Shown piece by piece: positions 1-11,149 of a stretch of 64,000 bases of DNA. Origin of the DNA: an uncultured Bacillota bacterium (GTDB lineage Bacteria > Bacillota > DTU025 > MWDF01); assembly GCA_963823655.1 (NCBI GenBank), contig CAWGMK010000013.1, forward strand, positions 352,001 through 416,000. Reading direction: 5' to 3'. The notes under the pieces are model-generated. The model worked only from the letters and a program-made list of their open reading frames with translations. It was not told where the DNA came from and did not search any database. The first letter of the stretch is position 1; each line of letters starts with the position of its first letter. Both the position numbers and the translations under genes were made by a program.

Positions 1-2310
1 CCAGCTCGGCGATGATCGCCATTGCCTGTGAGAACTCCTCGTCCGTGACGTTCATTATTATCTTGTTGGTCCTGGCGTCTACGTTGATCTTGGCGCCAGA
101 TATCACGGCTTCAAGGGCCTTGCCTACTTCTACGGCGGGGGCGTACTTCAGCTGTACTATCTGCAGAGCCTCGACTCCGGTCGCCAAGGCGACTACTGGC
201 TGCACTTTTGGTGCAACTTCGACGTCCAGGTTGCCGATTATGTCCAGGGCTACTGCCTTGCCTGCAGGAGTCACCATGACGATGACCTTGTTGGTGCGCT
301 CGTCGATGTTGACGTTGGCGGCGCCCAGCACCCCGTCCAGGACTCTCTTCACGTCCGCTGCGACGGCGTATTTCAGCTGTACCATTTCGAGAGTAGGCTC
401 GATAGTCGCAACCGCAGTGGTGGCGACGGGCACGTCGAGGGCGCTGATGATGCTCATGGCAAGCTGCTTCTTCGCCGGTGTTACGATCATCAGTACCTTA
501 TTGCTGCGATCGTCTACGCTTACCTTGCCCTGTCCAAGGGCTGCGTCCAGCGCCGGTTTCACGTCAGCAACTTTAGCGAACTTAAGCTCTACTACCTCAA
601 GGTTTTCAACCTCGACCGGAGCTACCGCTGTATCTATCCTTACATCCAGTTCATTGATGACGGCCATAGCAAGCAGCTTTTCCTCCGGGGTGACCTTCAA
701 AAGCAGCTTGTTGGTCCTCTGGTCTATTGATATGCTCGACGGCGCAAGTACTGCGGCAAGTGCCTTTTGTACGTCGGCGGCCTGAGCGTACTTGAGCTGC
801 ACTACTTCAAGCGAGCTTATGGCTGGCTTGACGGATACTGAAGCCATCTCTATGTCCAGGTTCTGTATGATCTGGGCTGCTAGGGCTCTCTCATCAGGAG
901 TGCCCAGTATGATTACCTTGTTGGTGCGCTCGTCGATGTTGACCTTGTCTGGGCCTAGAACACCGTCTAATACCTTCTTGGCGTCAGCGGCGTTGGCGTA
1001 TGTTAGGTTCATCACCTCAAGGCTGGGAACCACTGCAATAACGGCCGGCTGGTCCACCTTTACATCGATTGCGCCGATTATCTCCATAGCCATCAGCATC
1101 TCAGCCGGTGTTACCTTAAGCAGGACCTTATTTGTCCTCTCATCAATAGTCACATTCTCGGCGGGAAGCACTGATGCCAATGCCTTCTGTACGTCGGCGG
1201 CCATTGCGTGCTTGAGCTCAACGACCTCCATGGACACTGCCGGTTGTATTGCTGCAGCGTTCTTCACTGAGAGCGCCTCTTCGTCGAGCTTCTTGAGAGC
1301 CTCAGCAATTAGCGCATGGTCGGCATCTGTGCCGTAGGCTACAAGGCTGTTGTTGCTTTCGATCACCTGCAGCTTGGCTCCGGATGCGACAAGCCTCACG
1401 ACTGCTTCGATATCCTGGGCTTTGGCGTGCACCGGGCTGTAATAGCCGAGCCTTAGGATAGGAGCTGCCACGGACGCAACAGCAGCTACATCTGCGACTT
1501 TGACGTCCAGCTCCTTTATTAGGGCCATTGCCTCGGCGCTTTTTGCGGCGTCGACGAGCATCACTATCTTGTTTGTGCGCTCATCTATCGCGATCTTATT
1601 TGCGGGCAGGACGACGGTCATGGCTTCCGCCACATCCGCGACTTTCGCATATAGAAGAGTCACTACTTCAAGCTTCTCCTGGACAGTAGCCACGGCGGCT
1701 GATTTCGGTGTAGCGGCCTCAATGTTCTTCACAAGGTCGCTTACCCTGGTGTATTCCTCAGGAGTCGCTTTGATGATTAGCGTATTGCTCTTTGCGTCCG
1801 CCTGTATCCTATCGGCGGGGATTATTAGTGAAGCTACAGCCTTTACTTCGGCTGCGGCAGCGTTAGTCAGTTGTATGACGCGGATCTCCACCGGTTGAGT
1901 AGTGACTGATTCAGCTTTCTTTACGATGTCAAGTTTCTCAATGATGCTCCTGGCAGCCTTTACGTCAGTCAGCTTGCCGCCGGCGAGTATCGCATTGAGC
2001 CTTGTATCAACCGCAAGCGACGCCTTCAGCAGCTTGGATACTGCGTCAAATACGCCCTGTGCCTCTGCGTTCGAAAGCTGGATTATATCGATTACTTCCT
2101 CTTCGGAGACGGTCATCTTGGTTACAGGCAAAGGCGCATCTACCTTGGCGAGGAACGCCTTGGCGAGCGCGATATCCGCCTGATTGCCCCTTATGAGCAG
2201 CGTGCCGGACTTGTCGTCTGGCTGGGCCGCTATTCCGGGGATGGCGAATGATAGCTTGGTCGCGGCATCAGTTGCGGAGATGTTCAACAGCTCTACTTTC
2301 TCCACTACTG
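1..2310 (-). repeat. Tandem ~210-225 nt (70-75 aa) Secretin_N domain repeats, 11 copies visible
   Basis: D-x-R-T-N-K-like cores at about 63, 288, 498, 708, 918, 1128, 1347, 1569, 1782, 1992 and 2202, all in one frame. An identical 29-nt stretch occurs at 285-313 and 915-943. Confidence 0.9.
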
Positions 2311-2650
2311 CCTTGTCCATAAGCTTGCTGACAGTCCCCTTGGGGCCTACCATAATCGTTCCGTTCATATATATGTACTCAAGGTCTGACACGGAGCAGA
2401 TTATATCGAGTGCCTCTTCAACGGGTACGTTTGTCAGCTTGACCGTAATTTTGCCCGATACCGCCGGGCTTACTACTATATTGGATCCGCCTACTTGTGC
2501 GAGGACCCTGAATACTTCAGCTAGCTCCGCAAATTTCAAATCAAGGCTTACCTTGGCGGGCGAGCTCGCTGCGAATGAGCGCACGCCCAGCGTTAGCATC
2601 GCAAGTACCAGGGTTAGCGCAAATATCGCCCTAATCTTACTTGGCTTCAA
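1..2650 (-). CDS. pilQ: Giant secretin (PilQ/GspD-like), 3'-truncated by the window edge: signal peptide + STN/N0 domain + >=11 Secretin_N repeats
   Basis: Manual translation from TTG at 2650 (overlapping the stop of the upstream pilP-like gene): MKPSKIRAIFALTLVLAMLTLGVRSFAASSPAKVSLDLKFAELAEVFRVLAQVGGSNIVVSPAVSGKITVKLTNVPVEEALDII. Repeats follow, e.g. LEVVQLKYAQAADVQKALAAVLAPSSISIDQRTNKLLLKVTPEEKLLAMAVINELDV. The frame stays open to position 1, so the ORF track misses it. Lies after pilMNOP. The C-terminal secretin barrel is not in the window. Confidence 0.85.
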   Translation of the reverse strand, partial: MKPSKIRAIFALTLVLAMLTLGVRSFAASSPAKVSLDLKFAELAEVFRVLAQVGGSNIVVSPAVSGKITVKLTNVPVEEALDIICSVSDLEYIYMNGTIMVGPKGTVSKLMDKAVVEKVELLNISATDAATKLSFAIPGIAAQPDDKSGTLLIRGNQADIALAKAFLAKVDAPLPVTKMTVSEEEVIDIIQLSNAEAQGVFDAVSKLLKASLAVDTRLNAILAGGKLTDVKAARSIIEKLDIVKKAESVTTQPVEIRVIQLTNAAAAEVKAVASLIIPADRIQADAKSNTLIIKATPEEYTRVSDLVKNIEAATPKSAAVATVQEKLEVVTLLYAKVADVAEAMTVVLPANKIAIDERTNKIVMLVDAAKSAEAMALIKELDVKVADVAAVASVAAPILRLGYYSPVHAKAQDIEAVVRLVASGAKLQVIESNNSLVAYGTDADHALIAEALKKLDEEALSVKNAAAIQPAVSMEVVELKHAMAADVQKALASVLPAENVTIDERTNKVLLKVTPAEMLMAMEIIGAIDVKVDQPAVIAVVPSLEVMNLTYANAADAKKVLDGVLGPDKVNIDERTNKVIILGTPDERALAAQIIQNLDIEMASVSVKPAISSLEVVQLKYAQAADVQKALAAVLAPSSISIDQRTNKLLLKVTPEEKLLAMAVINELDVRIDTAVAPVEVENLEVVELKFAKVADVKPALDAALGQGKVSVDDRSNKVLMIVTPAKKQLAMSIISALDVPVATTAVATIEPTLEMVQLKYAVAADVKRVLDGVLGAANVNIDERTNKVIVMVTPAGKAVALDIIGNLDVEVAPKVQPVVALATGVEALQIVQLKYAPAVEVGKALEAVISGAKINVDARTNKIIMNVTDEEFSQAMAIIAEL

Positions 2651-3231
2651 TTGGACTCACCCCCCAAGACGAATTCCTTCTGGAACCCTTTATATGATAG
2701 TGTAAGTTTGCTTTCATTAATCTTAGTGACTACAATGTCTCCAACTAGTATGTCTCCTGGCCTTGCGCTGTATGTGGTCTGTTCGACTTCAATAATCGCG
2801 TATATCTTGTTGCTAGCCCTGATGATACCCGCATACCTTATGTTGGGCCATTCAGGCTCTGGCGGCAGGGGCTCCGGCATCAGATTATCGAAAGGATCCC
2901 ATCTTCCTATTGTCAGTGCAGATAGCGCTTGATCCTTCCTGTCTCCTGATGTGTCCTCGGCATCCTTGAGGCTGCTGTTGAGAGTATCGCCGATCTTCTG
3001 CTGCAGCTTATATTTGGCCTCGATCAACAGCGAGTCGTCCGAAGCCGGTTTTGCATATGGCAGAATATACCTAACAAAACCGACTGAAAGTGCTGCTAGG
3101 ATAATTATTAGCAGTACGACGATCAGTATTATCTGATTCCTGAGGTTTTTCCGGGCTCTTTCGGCAGGCGTCAGAGGCATCTTGCCGCGAGGCAGCTCCG
3201 GGCGCGGACTTACGCTATTGGGCACTGCCAT
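2647..3231 (-). CDS. PilP-like pilus assembly protein (N-terminal TM anchor)
   Basis: TM helix, GRWDPF motif, Pro-rich linker, C-terminal beta domain (YAGII...AIIEVEQTTYSARPGD); located between pilO and the secretin. Confidence 0.65.
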   Translation of the reverse strand: MAVPNSVSPRPELPRGKMPLTPAERARKNLRNQIILIVVLLIIILAALSVGFVRYILPYAKPASDDSLLIEAKYKLQQKIGDTLNSSLKDAEDTSGDRKDQALSALTIGRWDPFDNLMPEPLPPEPEWPNIRYAGIIRASNKIYAIIEVEQTTYSARPGDILVGDIVVTKINESKLTLSYKGFQKEFVLGGESN

Positions 3232-3823
3232 TCTGAGCACCTCCCTTCGGACGAATGAACAGGCTTAAGTTGCATATCGAGTGAAGCTTGTCAATTTGCT
3301 TTGTAGTACCATCTTCAGCGATCTTCGTTTCGGCCTGTAAGTCGAAGCTGTAGCTATTGACGGCAAGTTTCCTGTTCAGAATCTCTAATGAAATCATAGA
3401 AAGCTTTGATACCAGCATAGCTTCCTGTGATTTCGACATATGTGCCAACATCTAGGAATCTGCCAAGGGGTTTTGCATTATTGAACCTGACTGAACCGAG
3501 CTCAACTCCGGCCCTCTTCGCCATTGACTCAAGATCCCGAATGAAGAATGCTTGTTTCTCCTCGTCGGCGATGAACGTTTCCTCATTTCTGAGTTGCTCC
3601 AAAGCCAGTCTTTAAGGAAGCATCTGCTTCATCAGCCTTATTCAGCTTATTCAAATCGGCTCTAAGCTGCATTTCTGAAGTCTTGAGCTCTTCGCGCGCC
3701 AGTTCGAGCCTTTCTTGCTGAGGCGCAAAAACGTACACATATAACGCCACCAAGCCCGCCAAGACTAGAAAGACCCCTAAGTATCTTAAGTGCTCTGATA
3801 TCTCTGCTACCTAGCTTTGCCAA
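3215..3823 (-). CDS. pilO: Type IV pilus assembly protein PilO (several frameshifts, likely sequencing indels)
   Basis: Stitched: MAKLGSRDIRALKI-LGVFLVLAGLVALYVYVFAPQQERLE, then ORF 3354..3602 (FIRDLESMAKRAGVELGSVRF...EITGSYAGIKAF), then the tail of ORF 3215..3451; follows pilN. Confidence 0.7.
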
Positions 3824-3828
3824 ACCCC

Positions 3829-4383
3829 TCACCTCCTCCTTTCAAGGGCTCCGGTGATAACGAAGTCCTCATAGGAAGTAGCGGTTTCTCTATCCTCTGT
3901 TGTTGTTACTGAGCTGATCTTTATATCCTTATAGGCATTTGATGATTCAAGCGAGAATACAGATCTGGCTACTGACTGATAGCTGTATGTCACTCCATTA
4001 ATTGTAATTGTTTCCTGAGGGTTGACATTGGCACTGGTGAGCCAGACGTCAGCAGGAACTTTTGCCTTTAACTCTGCCAAAAACATGGCAGGACTCAAGT
4101 GCGGATTCTCTAAAGCAATTACCTCGTCATACAACTTCTTAATTTCCAGAGTCCTTGCTTCCACGTTTGCAACTGCCTGAACATCCTTCTTAATCATTGC
4201 TATGGATGTCTTGACTTCCTCTGTCCTCTCTTGAGTCTTGATTATTGCCAGCCGCCTGTAGGAATAGAGCCCTGAGAGGCAGGCAATGAGCACAACACCT
4301 AGGATTATCAGTGCAAGCGCTATAGGTCCCAGCGATTGCCTTATTTTTGGTCTAGCGGGAAGAAGGTTGATGTTGTTCCTCAT
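3829..4383 (-). CDS. pilN: Type IV pilus assembly protein PilN
   Basis: N-terminal INLLP motif, TM helix, coiled coil, VPADVWLTS PilN domain. Confidence 0.88.
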   Translation of the reverse strand: MRNNINLLPARPKIRQSLGPIALALIILGVVLIACLSGLYSYRRLAIIKTQERTEEVKTSIAMIKKDVQAVANVEARTLEIKKLYDEVIALENPHLSPAMFLAELKAKVPADVWLTSANVNPQETITINGVTYSYQSVARSVFSLESSNAYKDIKISSVTTTEDRETATSYEDFVITGALERRR

Positions 4384-5508
4384 TCCTCCACCACCTCCCT
4401 AAGTGCCAGCCCTACAGCCACTGACATTACAGGGGACATCTTTTCTACATCTAGCCCGTCTACCATTGTAGAAGAGACCTTTATAAGTTTATAGGGATTG
4501 CCTAAGCCTACGGGAAGCCCTGTTACATTGCTTAATAGTTCTCCAAATCCCTTAAGTTTAGAGCCCCCTCCTGCAAGTACTATCTCTTTCACAGCCAAGT
4601 TTTCGACTTTGCTTTGTAGTTGAGCGTCATGGTATGTGATGCTTCTCTTGCATTCTAGGCACAGCCCGTGAGCTACATCATAGATACCCTCAAGTAGCGC
4701 TCTCCTCTTTGGGCTTTGCTCCGATATATACTCTTCTTCGGCAGAAACCACTTCAGCTTCGGCAATTTTCAGTGCCTCAGCTTCATCTGCTTCTAATTGC
4801 ATTGTCTTCATGACCACTTCAGTAAAGTGATTACCGCCGATTTGCACAATTCTTGTCATCCTGAGATTTTCTCCATTGCAGATGACAAGATCCGTCGTGC
4901 CGCCCCCGATGTCAATGTATGCAGTGCTGCCGGTCTCATCTGAACCACTTAATCCATAAGCCCTCATCATGCAGAAAGGCTGGATATCTATTGCTATCGG
5001 ATTTAGGCCCGCAAGCTCAAGTGCCGCAGCGAAGCTCTCAACTTTACTTTTGAGCGCCGCAACTAAGCATAACTTCTACGTCCGCAGTTGCATCCTGAAG
5101 GAGCAATGTCGGATCAGGCATGACTACATCAATTACTGCTTCTTCAGCCGGGAATGGCAGATACTTGTCCGCTTCCCACTTGATTGCTTCCTTTAACTCG
5201 TCATACGGCATGTGAGGGAATACGACGGGGCGAACGATTACGTCCTGCCCTGCAATCGCACATGATACATCTCTGCTTCTGAAACCTGCTTCCCGCCACA
5301 TCTTCCTGATTACATCTGCTACTGCTGCTGTATCGATGACCGAACCTTCTCTTACACCTTCAAAAGGAGTTTTCGCAGAAGCAATGCCTACCAATTCGAT
5401 ATCGCCATGCAAATTCGCAACCTCAGCGATTTTTATCGAGGTAGTGCCTATGTCAACACCAATTGCTGTCGAACCTTTTCTAATGAATGGTTTTCGGGTT
5501 GGGCTCAA
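4380..5508 (-). CDS. pilM: Type IV pilus assembly protein PilM (frameshift near 5045)
   Basis: Actin-like GVDIGTTSIK, IDIGGGTTD and LAGGGSKL motifs, C-terminal AVGLALR; split over ORFs 5044..5517 and 4380..4970. Confidence 0.9.
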
Positions 5509-5552
5509 GCAGCTCACCTCCGAATTTCTAGGAATTAACTATAACTGATACA

Positions 5553-5581
5553 TTATTCTACCCACATATGCTTTCACCTGC
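5553..5581 (-). promoter_or_regulatory. SigH-like promoter upstream of pilM
   Basis: Minus strand GCAGGTGAA-N11-GTAGAATAA versus SigH consensus RNAGGAWWW-N11/12-RNNGAATWW (mismatches in -35). Confidence 0.45.
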
Positions 5582-6359
5582 TAATGTGGGAAAATTATCG
5601 CACTTATTGATATATTCGAAACAATAATTGCAGCTACTGCAAGGTACGGGCCAAATGGTACAGGTTGTCCTTTGCTCGCTTTGCCCAGCTTAATAAGTAT
5701 AAATGTCCCAATTAGTCCGAGTATAGAGCCTAAAAGCAAAACAATGACCGTTTGATACCATCCCAAGTAGGCGCCTACCGCTGCGATATACTTGATGTCA
5801 CCTCCGCCCATTTTTCCGTTGGAAATTTCGGCAAGTATAAGAAGAAAACCCCCACATGATACTGCACCGAGAATTGCATTCAGGAGTAATTTTACCCCTG
5901 GATCAGCCCAGATATAAAGGCTAAAGGGTTGATGAATGGAATTCCTAAAAGGTGAGGCTAAGATAAAAATAGACATAAGAGGAATCGTTATTATATCGGG
6001 TATCATTTGTGTTCTAAGTCAGTAAGCGCGATTATTAATGATGCCGACATGAAAATATAAAGAAGCGCCATCTCCAAACCCATTCCATATTTGTAATAAG
6101 CGATCAAGGCAAATAGCGCTGAAGCAATCTCAACCAAAGGATACTGGATGCTAATTTTAACCTCGCAGTATCTGCATCTTCCTTTAAGCATCAGCCAGCT
6201 GAAAACTGGTATAAGGTCTCGGGGAGCTAAGACTGTTTTGCACTTCGGACATATGGACCTTTCACCCTTGAGATCCATATCTCCAGGAAGACGGTAAATT
6301 AGAACGTTGTAGAAACTGCCAAGCAGGACTCCCAGAATAACAAGAAAAATATACATCAT
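5581..6359 (-). CDS. pilD: Prepilin peptidase/N-methyltransferase PilD (one frameshift at about 6006)
   Basis: GSFYNVLIYRLP, CPKC/CRYC Zn motif, D-LEHK-(M)IPD catalytic Asp, MGGGDIK and PFGPYL; split by a missing A in an A-run. Confidence 0.92.
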
Positions 6360-6549: not shown

Positions 6550-6896
6550 TTAGTGCACGCTGCAGTCAACTAATCCTGTAGTAGCAGAAATTGATAAAGT
6601 ACCGGTAGTTGAGCAAAGTATAGCTGCATCGAGATACTTTTGACCTGGGACAGCACCGTAGCCGGAGTTGTCGTCCATAAATCGGCAATAGCAGTTGGCC
6701 ACGCACCTTGATCTGCAAAGTAAATGCCCGCAGCAGAGTAAATAGTCCGACGATTTGCGTCGCAGGCAGCTTGTTGAGCTCTCGTTCTGAAGCTTTGATA
6801 AGCCGGTACTGCTATTGCGATTAGAATACCGATAATGATGATTACAATCATAAGTTCCATAATGGTAAAGCCTTTTTGATTCCTAGTCTTTCTCAT
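6550..6896 (-). CDS. pilA: Type IVa major pilin (one frameshift near 6657)
   Basis: Class III signal QKG|FTIMELMIVIIIIGILIAIAVP. Corrected C-terminus is GAVPGQKYLDAAILCSTTGTLSISATTGLVDCSVH*. Has its own terminator. Confidence 0.88.
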
Positions 6897-6934
6897 TTTC
6901 TGCACCTCCATATAAATTGGTATAACGCGAATAA

Positions 6935-8147
6935 TTACACGAAACTCGCCATTGAAAACATAGGCAACATTATCGATGCTACTAGTATTCCGGCAATTCC
7001 GCCTATGAACAGGATCATTATCGGTTCTATCATTGATGTCATTGCTTTTAGCGCTACATCGGTCTCTTCGTCGTAGAAGTCGGCCACCTTCTCTAACATT
7101 GTATCCAAAGCTCCGGTTTCTTCACCTATTGCCACCATATGTCCTAACATAGGCGGGAATATCGTAGACTGTTTCAGAGGTTTTCCTAAGCCTGATCCTT
7201 CTTTAACACCTAATCTTGCAGCTTCAATATCCTTCCTCATTACATAGTTGCCAGCTGTTTTCTCAAGCAACTCAAGTCCTTGAAGCATTGGGACTCCACT
7301 TTGCACCATCATTCCAAATGTTCTTGAGAACATCGCTGTACTACTCTTTCTAATAACTGGTCCAATGATAGGTACTCTGATTATTAGCCTATCAAACCAT
7401 GGCTTTAATGGCTTTGTTATTAGCCATCTAACACTAAAGAATAGAGCTACGAGTCACTATTGCAATAACATACCAATAATTCTGCATAAACTCCGCGGCT
7501 CCGAATACAACTTTCGTAATCGTCGGTAACTCAGTATCGAAGCTATCGAACATGTCTACAAAGGCCGGAAGCACAAAAGTCATTAATATTCCTACTGCAA
7601 TGATTGCCACTCCAACTAGGAAAAAGTGGATATGCCAAAGCCCCTTTACCTTGTTGATATTCTTATTGCTGTTCTCATAATATCTAGCTGTTCTATCAAG
7701 TACTCTATCAAGAGCTCCGGCAGTCTCACCAGCTTCTACCAAATTCGTAAACATGGGTGGGAATATTCCAGGATAGTTCCTAATAGCATTTGAAAACGAT
7801 TCTCCACCTTCTACTCTTTTCCTAACATCATTAATAACTGCAGCCAAATTTTTTCTTTCCACTTGGGCAGCAAGTACATTTAAGGCACTCACTAACGGAA
7901 GGCCTGCTTCAATCATTGTTGCCAACTGTCTGCTAAGAAGCGAAAGCTCTTTAACACTAACTTTCTTCGCCTTTGGACGTTATCAGAGCTGGAAGTGGCT
8001 GTTTTAGTTGCCTCCGCCTGAAGTAATGCTTATCGGGATATTGCCCTGCTGACGAAGTCGATCAACAACAATCTGCCTCGATTCAACATCCATAACGCCT
8101 TCAATGGAATGACCTTTGCTGTCTCTAGCCTTATAGGTGAACTGCAA
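6935..8147 (-). CDS. pilC: Type IV pilus platform protein PilC (T2SSF family; frameshifted)
   Basis: AGGAGGTG RBS, TTG start MQFTYKARDSKG, RQLATMIEAGLPL, AGETAGALD, GEETGALDTML...SMIEP. Confidence 0.92.
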
Positions 8148-8193
8148 TTTCTCACCTCCTGTTTGTTGGCAGATTGTCCCCTCAAGTACTTAC

Positions 8194-8236: not shown

Positions 8237-9294
8237 TTAACTGCCAATCATTCTTTTAAGCTCTTCTTGATCAATTGCCCTACCCATAGCCTCTTCCTTA
8301 CTAATTTGTCTATTGAGGAAGAGATCCCTAAGTGAGCTGTCCATCGACTGCATACCATATTTGCCACCAGTTTGAATAACCGAATATATCTGATGAGTCT
8401 TGCCTTCCCTAATAAGGTTTCTGGCGGCAGCTGTCGCCATCATCACTTCCACTGCAACACACCTGCCGCTATTATCCTTATTGGGCATGAGCTGCTGAGA
8501 AAGGACCCCAATAATACTCCGGCAAGCTGTATCCTTATCTGCCCCTGCTGGTTCCCCGGGAACTGGTCGATAATCCTGTCAATTGTCTGGACTGTATCCA
8601 CCGTATGAAGAGTTGCCAGAACCAAATGCCCAGTTTCAGCTGCAGTGACAGCAATCGAAGTAGTTTCTGGATCTCGCATTTCTCCTACGAGTATCACATC
8701 CGGATCCTCACGAAGAGCAGCCCTCAATCCATTTGCAAAGGTCTCTGTATCATTGCCAACCTCTCGCTGGTTGACCATCGCCTTCTTATGCTTATGCAAG
8801 TACTCTATAGGGTCCTCGAGAGTGATGATATGGCACGCTCTAGTGTTATTTATGATATCGATAATTGAGGCCAGAGTAGTCGACTTGCCGCTGCCAGTAG
8901 GGCCAGTGACCAGGAACAAGCCTCTTTGCTTCTCGGCTATGGCATTTACGGAAGCAGGAATACCCAACTCCCTCAATGTCCTGATTTCCGTCGGTATAGT
9001 CCTGAATGCTCCTGCCAATGTCCCTCTTTGGTGGTATATGTTCACCCTGAAGCGGCCGACTCCGGCAATAGAATAAGAAAGGTCGACTTCGCCTTTCGAA
9101 TCTAAGCGCTTCTTCTGTTCCTCATTCAGCAATCCCATGAAAAGCTGCCTGATATCGTTCGGAAGAAGCTTCGGCAAATCGCCAACTGGCATGAGGTCGC
9201 CAACGTTCCTGGCCATAGGCGGAAGGCCTACGGTGAAGTGAACATCCGAGGCACCCATGGAAAACCCCTGTGTCAAGATGTCATCCAGTTCCAT
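8237..9294 (-). CDS. pilT: Retraction ATPase PilT (frameshift near 8505)
   Basis: GASDVH, GPTGSGKST, TLEDPIE, LREDPDVILVGEMRD, AAETGHLV and the AARNLIRE motif. Confidence 0.95.
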
Positions 9295-9320: not shown

Positions 9321-11149
9321 TTACTCGGCAATCATGGACACCCTTAATATCTCCTGCATCGTAGTTATACCCATCGTAGCTTTTATTGCGCCATCCACTA
9401 TCATGGGTTTCATGCCATTTCTCATGGCAACCTCTATGATCTGGTCCGACGTAGCCCTGGCATTGATGAGCTTCCTAATCTCCTCAGTAGTAATCATTAT
9501 CTCGAAAACGCCGGTTCGGCCGGAGTAACCGAGGCCGTTGCAGAACTGGCATCCGACCGGGTTGTACATCTTGACCGGCTCGGCCGGGTCGAATCCGGAT
9601 GACATTCCCAAGCTTCTTGACCCAGTTCCTCCACACTGCAAGGTCCGGAGTGTATTCTTTCCTGCAATGCTTGCACAAGAACGCGAACAAGCCTCTGCGC
9701 AAGGACCCCTAAGATAGAGCTGGACACCAAGAAGGGCTCGACTCCCATGTCGACAAGCCTGATCGGCGCGCCGCACGAATCGTTCGTATGCAATGTAGAA
9801 AGGACCAAATGCCCTGTCAATGCTGCATTTATCGCGATTCCGGCAGTCTCGCCGTCTCTTATCTCGCCGACCATTATGATGTCAGGGTCCTGCCTTAGAA
9901 TTGACCTCAAGCCGTTTGCGAAGTTCAATCCCGCCCTGGCGTTGGTCTGCACCTGGTTGATGCCGTCCAGCCTGTACTCAACAGGGTCTTCTACTGTAAT
10001 GATATTCAATGACGAGTCATTTATCTTGTTTAAACTGGAGTACAGCGTTCTCGTTTTTCCGGATCCTGTAGGGCCCGTAACCAGGATTATCCCGTAAGGC
10101 TTCTCCAACAGGTACCTCCACTGCTCCATGTTATCCTGCAGGAAGCCAAGCTGCTCAAGCTGCGTCTTCGCGCCTTTCTTAACCAAAAGCCTGCAGACGA
10201 CCTTCTCGCCGTAGATCGTAGGCAGCGTCGATACGCGAAGGTCCAGCTCCTCGTTCTCAATGACCAGCTGTATCCTGCCGTCCTGCGGCACACGCTTTTC
10301 AGCGATGTCCATGTTCGACATGACCTTGAACCTGGAAGCTATCGCATACCTCAGGTTTCTGGGCAGCTTCATCTGCTCGTGCAGTATGCCATCCACCCTG
10401 AAGCGCACTATAACAAAGTCCTGCCTCGGTTCCACATGTATGTCGGATGCGCCTTGTTTGTAGGCCTCGGATATGAGGGAGTTTACTATCCTGACAACTG
10501 GTCCCTCATCCCCGGCCACGTAGGAGGCCATATCGGTATCCTCATCCGCTGCTATGGTAGATACGCGCTCGTCGGATATCGACTTTATGATATCCTCAAG
10601 CCCTGATTCAGGATAATACCTGTTCAGGGCCATGCGCACATCCTCCTCCTTGGCGATGTAGGGGATTATGTTCATGCCCGTGATTATCTTTACATCATCG
10701 ATGGCGAAAACATTGATGGGATCCGCCATCGCGAGCTTCAGCTTGTCATTCACTATATCGATGGGGATTACCAGGTGTTTTCTGGCGATAGAACCGGGTA
10801 CAAGATCGAGGACGTCTGTAGGTATGATCTTATCCTTGAACGCGAACACCTCGAGGCCGAGCTGTTCTTTGAGGATTTCGACGATATCATCCTCAGTAAC
10901 CAGGTTTAAGGAGAGCAGGACTTTGCCTATCCTCTCCTTGGTTTTCTTCTGTTCCTCCATGGCGTTTTTAAGCTGATCATCAGTGATGACGCCCGTGGCG
11001 ACAAGAGCTTCACCAAGCCGCATCCTCTTATGGAAACCGGCGTATGCCTGCTTGCCGTTGGATCCGTTTCCGTTTACAGCCGATTTGGTCGCGCTGCCAT
11101 TTGGATCCTGCTCTTTGCCGGTAAACATCTTGCTATCGTTTTCAGGCAC
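9321..11149 (-). CDS. pilB: Extension ATPase PilB with N-terminal MshEN domain (frameshifts near 9670 and 9625)
   Basis: RLGEALV...QL..A..EQ MshEN motif, ASDIHVEP, GPTGSGKT, LRQDPDIIMVGEIRD; CKHC/CQFC Zn motifs lie in shifted frames. Confidence 0.95.

Follow-up and report, generated by a model that had tools for sequence, protein, structure and literature searches.

A giant PilQ-type secretin with sixteen Secretin_N domains in an uncultured diderm Bacillota lineage, and the co-variation of its length with that of the OmpM tether

The 64,000-nucleotide window analysed here (positions 352,001 to 416,000 of contig CAWGMK010000013.1, contig C13 of the 97% complete source genome G000, from an uncultured Bacillota bacterium) begins, on its minus strand, with the larger part of a gene for a giant secretin that we identify as the PilQ of a type IVa pilus. 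Its frame stays open for 883 codons, from a TTG at position 2650 that overlaps the stop codon of the upstream gene in the pilP position to the edge of the window. This agrees with a first-pass annotation of the same DNA, which had described an uninterrupted frame of more than 880 residues carrying a signal peptide and an STN/N0 domain; the former appears in the structure model as a hydrophobic helix at residues 6-21, and the latter is readily matched by its Pfam profile (Table 1). The same annotation counted 11 Secretin_N repeats at 210-225 nucleotide spacing, which holds inside the window (11 repeats, with starts 210-225 nucleotides apart) but not for the whole gene, which has 16.

As had been suspected, the gene is still repeating at the window edge, and R12-R16 lie beyond it. 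When the contig was followed leftward with a Pfam search, the first frame reached a total of 1,119 residues with 14 Secretin_N repeats, and a second frame, overlapping the end of the first, supplied two further Secretin_N repeats and a full secretin barrel (PF00263, E 6e-38, positions 1-169 of 169). A barrel-less repeat protein, the alternative raised at the outset, is rejected by this barrel. Read without one extra base, pilQ comprises 1,472 codons specifying a signal peptide, N0, 16 repeats (R1 to R16) and the barrel, after which there is only a short tail. An AlphaFold2 model of the first frame shows 14 separate beta-alpha-beta-beta-alpha domains (mean predicted local distance difference test score, pLDDT, 75) whose best fold matches are secretins or secretin N-domains. 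All of the repeats retain the ring-building fold and the conserved motif positions, and they are joined by linkers of ~10-19 residues that are modelled with low confidence (predicted template-modelling score, pTM, 0.27). Folding four copies of R7-R9 together gave a score of 0.00 against a mark of 0.42, which is uninformative either way. An ESM Atlas search with the window part of PilQ returned only small Secretin_N clusters (0.87-0.90), the Pfam search gave no AMIN (PF11741) match in this PilQ, and Rfam had no match within the 64-kb window. On the evidence of its C-terminal domain, N0 and N1-type domains, the protein is a member of the secretin superfamily. The secretin C-terminal domain forms a gated outer-membrane barrel of ~12-15 subunits, and a gated 12-15-mer channel is predicted for this PilQ by analogy.

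The assignment as a type IVa pilus PilQ, made from sequence, follows from the position of the gene at the end of an operon ordered pilB-pilT-pilC-pilA-pilD-pilM-pilN-pilO-pilP-pilQ (Table 1), which is followed by a peptidase gene and then efp. This order is identical in 7/7 class loci among those listed. In the intact operon of a relative, PilM and PilT exceed the curated NCBIfam cut-offs, and the intact PilQ ortholog scores 280 with the GspD model, whose cut-off is 351. An identity as GspD, the type II secretion secretin, was considered and rejected, as the operon carries the PilT retraction ATPase and PilM. The protein in the pilP position has no Pfam or NCBIfam match. ComEC is present in the source genome, flagellin and FlgI were not found in it, and DNA uptake and adhesion or twitching are the likely uses predicted for the pilus.

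Table 1. Features of the pilQ locus and related loci. Positions are those of the window unless a genome or locus is given.
Feature	Position	Strand	Basis or remark
pilQ, part inside the window (residues 1-883 of ~1,472)	2..2650	-	gene continues left to contig 350231
pilQ, part outside the window: R12-R14 in frame, one-base insertion at contig 351318, R15, R16, secretin barrel		-	
Sec-type signal-peptide-like N-terminus: basic residues, hydrophobic helix, without lipobox Cys	2570..2650	-	sequence; cleavage site read by eye
STN / N0 domain, residues 33-104	2339..2554	-	PF07660 E 1.6e-10, PF21305 E 2.4e-6
Secretin_N R1-R5	1280..2308	-	2308-2141, 2098-1934, 1888-1712, 1675-1508, 1453-1280
Secretin_N R6-R10, variable middle block	227..1234	-	1234-1067, 1024-857, 814-647, 604-437, 394-227
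Secretin_N R11, first of conserved C-terminal block R11-R16	2..169	-	
29-nt stretch in R10 identical to 915-943 in R7	285..313	.	sole exact repeat >15 nt in pilQ
pilP-position gene, 197 aa, one membrane helix, 142 residues after helix	2647..3240	-	position and layout
pilO-position gene, three frames here	3218..3820	-	204 aa, intact in two same-genus genomes
pilN	3829..4383	-	PF05137 E 1.9e-12
pilM, two frames	4380..5520	-	PF11104 on both pieces; TIGR01175 over cut-off in intact ortholog
pilD prepilin peptidase, two frames	5581..6359	-	named from sequence and position
pilA, major pilin candidate	6570..6911	-	PF07963 E 8e-9
pilC platform protein, split	6935..8171	-	intact ortholog
pilT retraction ATPase, split	8243..9294	-	TIGR01420 478 bits vs cut-off 319 (intact ortholog)
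pilB extension ATPase, split	9321..11149	-	ortholog with cyclic di-GMP-binding MshE-type motif
OmpM of G000	G000:C10:450100-453719 (L051:6101-9720)		split by frame breaks; G001 ortholog L076:281-3649
Very long, low-complexity PilP-position proteins with short PilQ	L101:8399-9454, L128:2016-3479, L130:2001-3203, L132:1786-3651, L152:2694-3707, L154:2798-4558		

The two pilQ frames are separated by a one-base shift at contig position 351318, before R15 and ~680 nucleotides left of the window. This insertion is probably an assembly error, because the extra base is absent in 7/7 covering contigs (4 public runs, 3 studies) and because 38 of 187 orthologues of a same-genus genome are similarly split in G000. 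The latter corresponds to 0.25 breaks per kb, so that a gene of 4.4 kb would be expected to contain about one break, and apparent pseudogenes or fusions in this assembly need care. The covering contigs derive from relatives and not from the source strain, since no public run holds half of pilQ's words. Five more indels are listed versus the public runs, in pilO, pilT and pilB and next to pilT, and contigs of one RNA library cover pilQ, which cannot show expression. A programmed frameshift at contig 351318 was set aside, the relatives being without the extra base. One low-depth contig of run X2 skips 674 nucleotides of the gene, with 23 other letters, for a net of three repeats (window 948-1623; L074:3448-4123); with 32 letters on its short side it is a weak indication of what is possibly a shorter pilQ allele.

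The repeats differ in their relatedness and in their stability among relatives. R6-R11 are 38-63% identical as proteins, so that the special similarity first noted for the six most distal repeats in the window is real, although R4 and R13 fall in the same group; R5, R12 and R14 constitute a distinct sequence subtype. The 29-nucleotide identity between R10 and R7 is likewise exact, and only 1 of 500 synonymous-codon shuffles yields a repeat that long. The recent expansion that had been read from these similarities is not borne out. The closest repeat pairs are 68% (R7/R10) and 66% (R6/R8) identical in DNA, and a diagonal scan of pilQ found no long near-identical block, on which grounds the expansion in the source genome is judged from sequence to be old, with at most a short conversion tract. 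Recent block duplications were seen in the pilQ genes of two relatives, with 462 nucleotides at 98.7% in G012 and 1,092 nucleotides at 99.4% identity among the 20 repeats of G004. The possibility that the repeats are an assembly artefact was rejected for the source genome, as they have diverged and independent assemblies of relatives carry 11-20 of them. Same-genus proteins have totals of 11, 13, 15, 16 and 20 repeats, and in most of them the change is confined to the middle block R6-R10, which ranges from 0 to 9 copies. The flanking sets, R1-R5 (61-86% identity) and R11-R16, retain orthologous positions in the majority of these proteins, with P0005 departing from the rule in R1-R5.

Repeat counts were compared across relatives, as the first-pass annotation had suggested. 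In the class, which here is equivalent to the order (the same 21 genomes), unbroken giant secretin frames of 1,204-1,775 residues with 11-20 repeats and the barrel in frame occur in 13 of the 20 other genomes, with individual counts of 13, 20, 15, 13, 16, 15, 11, 11, 14, 13, 13, 12 and at least 13; the intact orthologs of G001 and G002 account for 13 and 15 repeats respectively. Among the remaining seven, four have secretin pieces cut by contig ends, two (72-77% complete) yielded no giant secretin, and G008 has only a short secretin together with a 487-residue OmpM stalk; the last does not count against the pattern, given that a convincing PilM is lacking there. Outside the class, 84 of 387 sampled genomes of the phylum have a Secretin_N match, with a maximum of 9 per genome. 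The many-repeat design is nonetheless not unique to the class, because unrelated secretins with 11-15 Secretin_N matches exist. Long homologues numbered 241, of which 120 were listed and 24 of these scanned for Secretin_N; P0041, P0042, P0047, P0052 and P0077 are giant GspD-like secretins of 1,494-1,653 residues with 11-15 matches and a barrel. Their nearest Atlas clusters are mostly Planctomycetota, with few labelled members, and judging from sequence they probably represent an independent expansion. Two further secretin contexts were observed. In three class genomes, short secretins of 482-521 residues adjoin secreted proteins of more than 1,300 residues at sites away from any pil operon (L094:3-6693, L095:108-7608, L096:7439-12999), and a second cluster type (L098:6076-12779, L100:3546-14359) has one or two secretins of ~360-430 residues and several signal-peptide genes, with no obvious ATPase nearby.

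The gene content of the source genome suggests that the cell has an outer membrane. There is an outer-membrane cluster of bamA, ompH, lptF/G, lptC, lptA, lptB, DUF3084 and ompM, and no match to LpxC or TamB was found in G000, nor one to Spo0A_C, although the phylum is Bacillota; the original description of a giant PilQ secretin in a diderm Bacillota is thus upheld by domains, operon and outer-membrane cluster alike. OmpM combines an SLH domain (PF00395) and a barrel in one protein, encoded as a single frame in relatives and split in G000, where ~578 residues separate the two. OmpM stalks measure 419-754 residues in 17 class genomes versus ~40-270 in most outside genomes read. The modelled OmpM of G001 consists of the SLH domain, long helices and a 28-strand barrel, with Deinococcus radiodurans SlpA at fold-match ranks 2-4; barrels of 28-30 strands are said to be confined to Deinococcus-Thermus (PMC10628300). 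Taking 0.15 nm for each helical residue, the stalk of G000 would span 71-87 nm at most, and class stalks would span 63-110 nm when extended in full. The 28-nm SlpA coil of D. radiodurans fits the measured outer-membrane-to-wall distance of 30 nm (PMC9388160). Three other observations concern envelope proteins. LptF/G continues into an LptD-like region, in one 1,079-residue frame in G001 (L120:8043-11279) and in split form in G000 (G000:C10:443138-446395), a genome without an LpxC match. A 2,011-residue secreted protein that has, by inspection, a TPR-like N-terminus and many immunoglobulin/fibronectin-like repeats lies 13 kb before the outer-membrane cluster (G000:C10:421686-427718). Finally, a protein of another Bacillota genome (L155:207-1778) has an SLH domain together with a long coiled coil that terminates in a membrane helix rather than a barrel, resembling Thermotoga Omp-alpha.

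Across 11 class genomes, the periplasmic length of the secretin rises with the length of the OmpM stalk (rho 0.80, p 0.003). Phylogenetic contrasts give r 0.94, with 8 of 10 of the same sign and 1 opposite. When G004 is dropped, the values are rho 0.73 and r 0.84, and in the seven genomes outside the window's genus the rank correlation is 0.75 (p 0.052). Genome size tracks neither length. The slope amounts to ~35-44 stalk residues, or 5-6.5 nm, per repeat, which is somewhat above the ~4 nm per ring that may be derived, by analogy, from the 35-nm, six-ring Thermus PilQ (PMC5745081). G015 (13 repeats, 562-residue stalk) and its congener G012 (15, 609), a pair outside the 11-genome test, differ in the same direction. 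The genomes omitted from this test were G002, whose ompM contains a stretch of undetermined bases, G011, with its ompM truncated at a contig end, G015, with its pilQ truncated, and those with no complete giant pilQ (G005, G006, G008, G013, G014, G017 and G020); the stalk length of G004 includes a 44-residue offset for a missing 5' end. The rest of the machinery does not lengthen. The PilP-position protein has 142-155 residues after its helix in 7/7 class genomes, and PilN, PilO and PilP are ordinary in size and, with both barrels, show no lengthening in the class, so it is the secretin that has to cover the distance. Elsewhere in the phylum a different arrangement emerges as a lead only, from starts that are uncurated and kin that are not independent, with G030 ambiguous and the G149 frame fused to pilO: read roughly, a short PilQ is paired with PilP-position proteins of more than 300 residues after the helix in six genomes, belonging to four families, whose stalks have ~235-400 residues, and eight genomes, seven of which have stalks below ~190, have 147-191 residues after it.

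Taken with the architecture of the protein, these data lead us to consider it probable that PilQ forms a 17-ring sleeve of ~55-90 nm, conducting the pilus over the wide gap that separates the outer membrane from the wall and that is set by OmpM, and that the sleeve is refitted by gain and loss of repeats. The C-terminal domain would form the usual gated barrel in the outer membrane, and N0 and the 16 other domains, on their short linkers, would stack below it as rings, giving a sleeve whose length is scaled from the 35 nm of Thermus PilQ. Through this sleeve a retractile pilus would be led from an ordinary-sized PilM/N/O/P platform across the gap, the width of which is probably determined by OmpM, a tether with a helical stalk of 420-750 residues. 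Changes in this width would be followed by gain or loss of whole repeats in the middle block, between fixed N- and C-terminal sets. The first-pass annotation had linked the length of the secretin to a very wide periplasm or a thick wall, with repeat number possibly acting as a ruler of the envelope. The co-variation with the OmpM stalk, itself a comparison of sequences, supports the part concerning width; a thick wall is the less probable alternative, since what the long OmpM stalk gauges is the distance from outer membrane to peptidoglycan. A causal role for repeat number as ruler is unlikely; it is more probable that the abundant OmpM tether fixes the spacing and that the secretin adapts to it.

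Several observations weigh against this interpretation. To our knowledge, no cell of this class has been imaged. The intact PilQ ortholog scores 279.7 with TIGR02515, just below the cut-off of 284.35, and short secretins in different gene contexts are present as well in several genomes of the class. The 1,092-nucleotide block of G004 may be a misassembly, and when this duplication is collapsed rho falls to 0.67 and the contrasts to r 0.53 (p 0.09); when the number of repeats is the sole measure and G004 is omitted, rho is 0.53 (p 0.12). The tree used for the contrasts was itself derived from the barrel portions of pilQ and ompM, and two of its contrasts carry most of the weight. In phylum genomes that lie outside the class, the length of PilQ does not track that of the stalk. 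The OmpM stalk was modelled as a monomer at low confidence (pLDDT mostly <50), and compact OmpM stalks have been reported (PMC10628300). Moreover, Thermus PilQ spans about half of a 70-nm periplasm (PMC4463427), and D. radiodurans has a periplasm of 121 nm (PMC9388160) but a secretin of 740 residues; a wide periplasm does not require the giant-secretin design, because these organisms manage otherwise.

It is also conceivable, though in our view unlikely, that the extra N-domains serve as a flexible string of beads or a binding scaffold linking the secretin to PilP or the wall, in place of the absent AMIN domains, and that only N0 and the barrel-proximal domains are structural. The low-confidence linkers and low pTM of the model, the lack of an AMIN match and the distinct subtype of R5, R12 and R14 fit such an arrangement, as does the fact that in solved secretins the distal N-rings frequently lack resolved density (PMC5745081). 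However, every repeat here keeps the ring-building fold and motif positions, Thermus PilQ forms five N1-type rings with linkers of up to 17 residues (PMC5745081), and the length of the protein still co-varies with that of the OmpM stalk. This co-variation could itself be neutral, in a lineage that tolerates tandem duplications and whose OmpM stalk folds back, so that the envelope is not unusually wide and the correlation results from ancestry and a few assemblies. We rate this somewhat lower still: both genes of G012 carry recent duplications, the contrasts weaken to p 0.08-0.09 with the suspect duplications collapsed, the sample is 11 genomes and there is no proportionality outside the class, but the rank correlation remained between 0.67 and 0.80 with each of the drops and collapses that were tried, and it holds beyond the window's genus. 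In addition, neither PilN, PilO and PilP nor the two barrels lengthen, and the observed stalk residues per repeat are of the order expected if both proteins span one distance.

The remaining explanation, that the locus is decaying in this strain and that pilQ as assembled is a barrel-less pseudogene, strikes us as very improbable. The pil genes contain 8 frame breaks in ~12.5 kb versus ~3 expected at the genome-wide rate (Poisson p 0.015), an excess that leaves a small chance of real decay, and no public run near-identical to the source strain was found, the best sharing 0.24 of pilQ words. Yet the genome-wide splitting of orthologues also affects ompM and lptFG-D, along with genes that we take from their sequences to be groEL, rpoD, infB and aspS, and the extra base is missing from every covering contig.

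If PilQ does act as a sleeve matched to the OmpM tether, the consequences extend beyond this locus. We put forward tentatively, and at somewhat less than even chances, that this is a class of lipopolysaccharide-lacking diderm Bacillota with one of the widest outer-membrane-to-wall gaps known (~70-100 nm), readable from two independent rulers that change in step between species, an OmpM stalk of 420-750 residues and a secretin of 12-21 rings reaching up to ~90 nm, and that other diderm Bacillota with medium stalks lengthen PilP instead, which would make these two interchangeable ways to match envelope width. Should the OmpM co-variation hold, the envelope width of uncultured bacteria could be estimated from sequence, and the class would provide a natural series (11 to 16 or 20 repeats) for studying how trans-envelope machines are matched to membrane spacing. 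An extreme envelope is thereby predicted in a diderm Bacillota lineage relevant to the diderm-to-monoderm transition, and the secretin offers a modular protein tube of tunable length. With sixteen ring-building domains versus the usual one to five, it would have ~3 times as many rings as the longest characterised secretin (six rings, PMC5745081), and its repeat number varies between close relatives. A literature search, with most subscription journals outside its coverage, turned up no account of a secretin having more than six N-domains. The idea that additional rings serve a wide periplasm has already been published for Thermus; we found no published counterpart for the scale, for the variability of the middle block or for the OmpM co-variation.

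The closest known system is the 757-residue PilQ of Thermus thermophilus, described as one of the largest known secretins, with 35 nm for six rings and barrel (PMC5745081), whose extra N-rings are described as an adaptation to a periplasm of ~70 nm (PMC5745081, PMC4463427, PMC13039148). A long, flexible PilW bridges the rest of that periplasm (PMC4463427, PMC13039148). In the available parts of these three papers, nothing is described for Thermus PilQ that corresponds to the variable middle block or to the OmpM co-variation seen in the class. The two proteins have in common that they are type IVa secretins with beta-alpha-beta-beta-alpha N-domains, encoded in the order pilM-N-O-(W/P)-Q. They differ in that Thermus has five N1-type rings versus 16 domains here and 11-20 in the class, and in that Thermus bridges with its long PilW, whereas the PilP-position protein of this operon is short; the long PilP-position proteins of other diderm Bacillota resemble PilW.

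Proteobacterial PilQ and GspD have one to three N1-type domains, and AMIN peptidoglycan-binding domains are common in proteobacterial PilQ, though not universal. The present protein shares with them (PDB 6W6M, 6VE2, 3JC8, 5WQ7) the barrel (profile E 1e-34 to 1e-25), N0 and the N1-type domains, and departs from them in having no AMIN match and a short tail, where proteobacterial PilQ often has AMIN domains and GspD often has an S-domain with pilotin. The GspD-like giants share the 11-15 Secretin_N matches before a barrel but differ in a barrel region 26-28% identical, longer repeats and no STN match. The OmpM of this class, finally, has the layout of SLH domain, helical stalk and barrel seen in Deinococcus SlpA and Veillonella OmpM (PDB 8AE1, 8BYS), and its stalk of 419-754 residues compares with coils of 28 nm in D. 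radiodurans and 45 nm in Thermotoga Omp-alpha (PMC9388160, PMC10628300).

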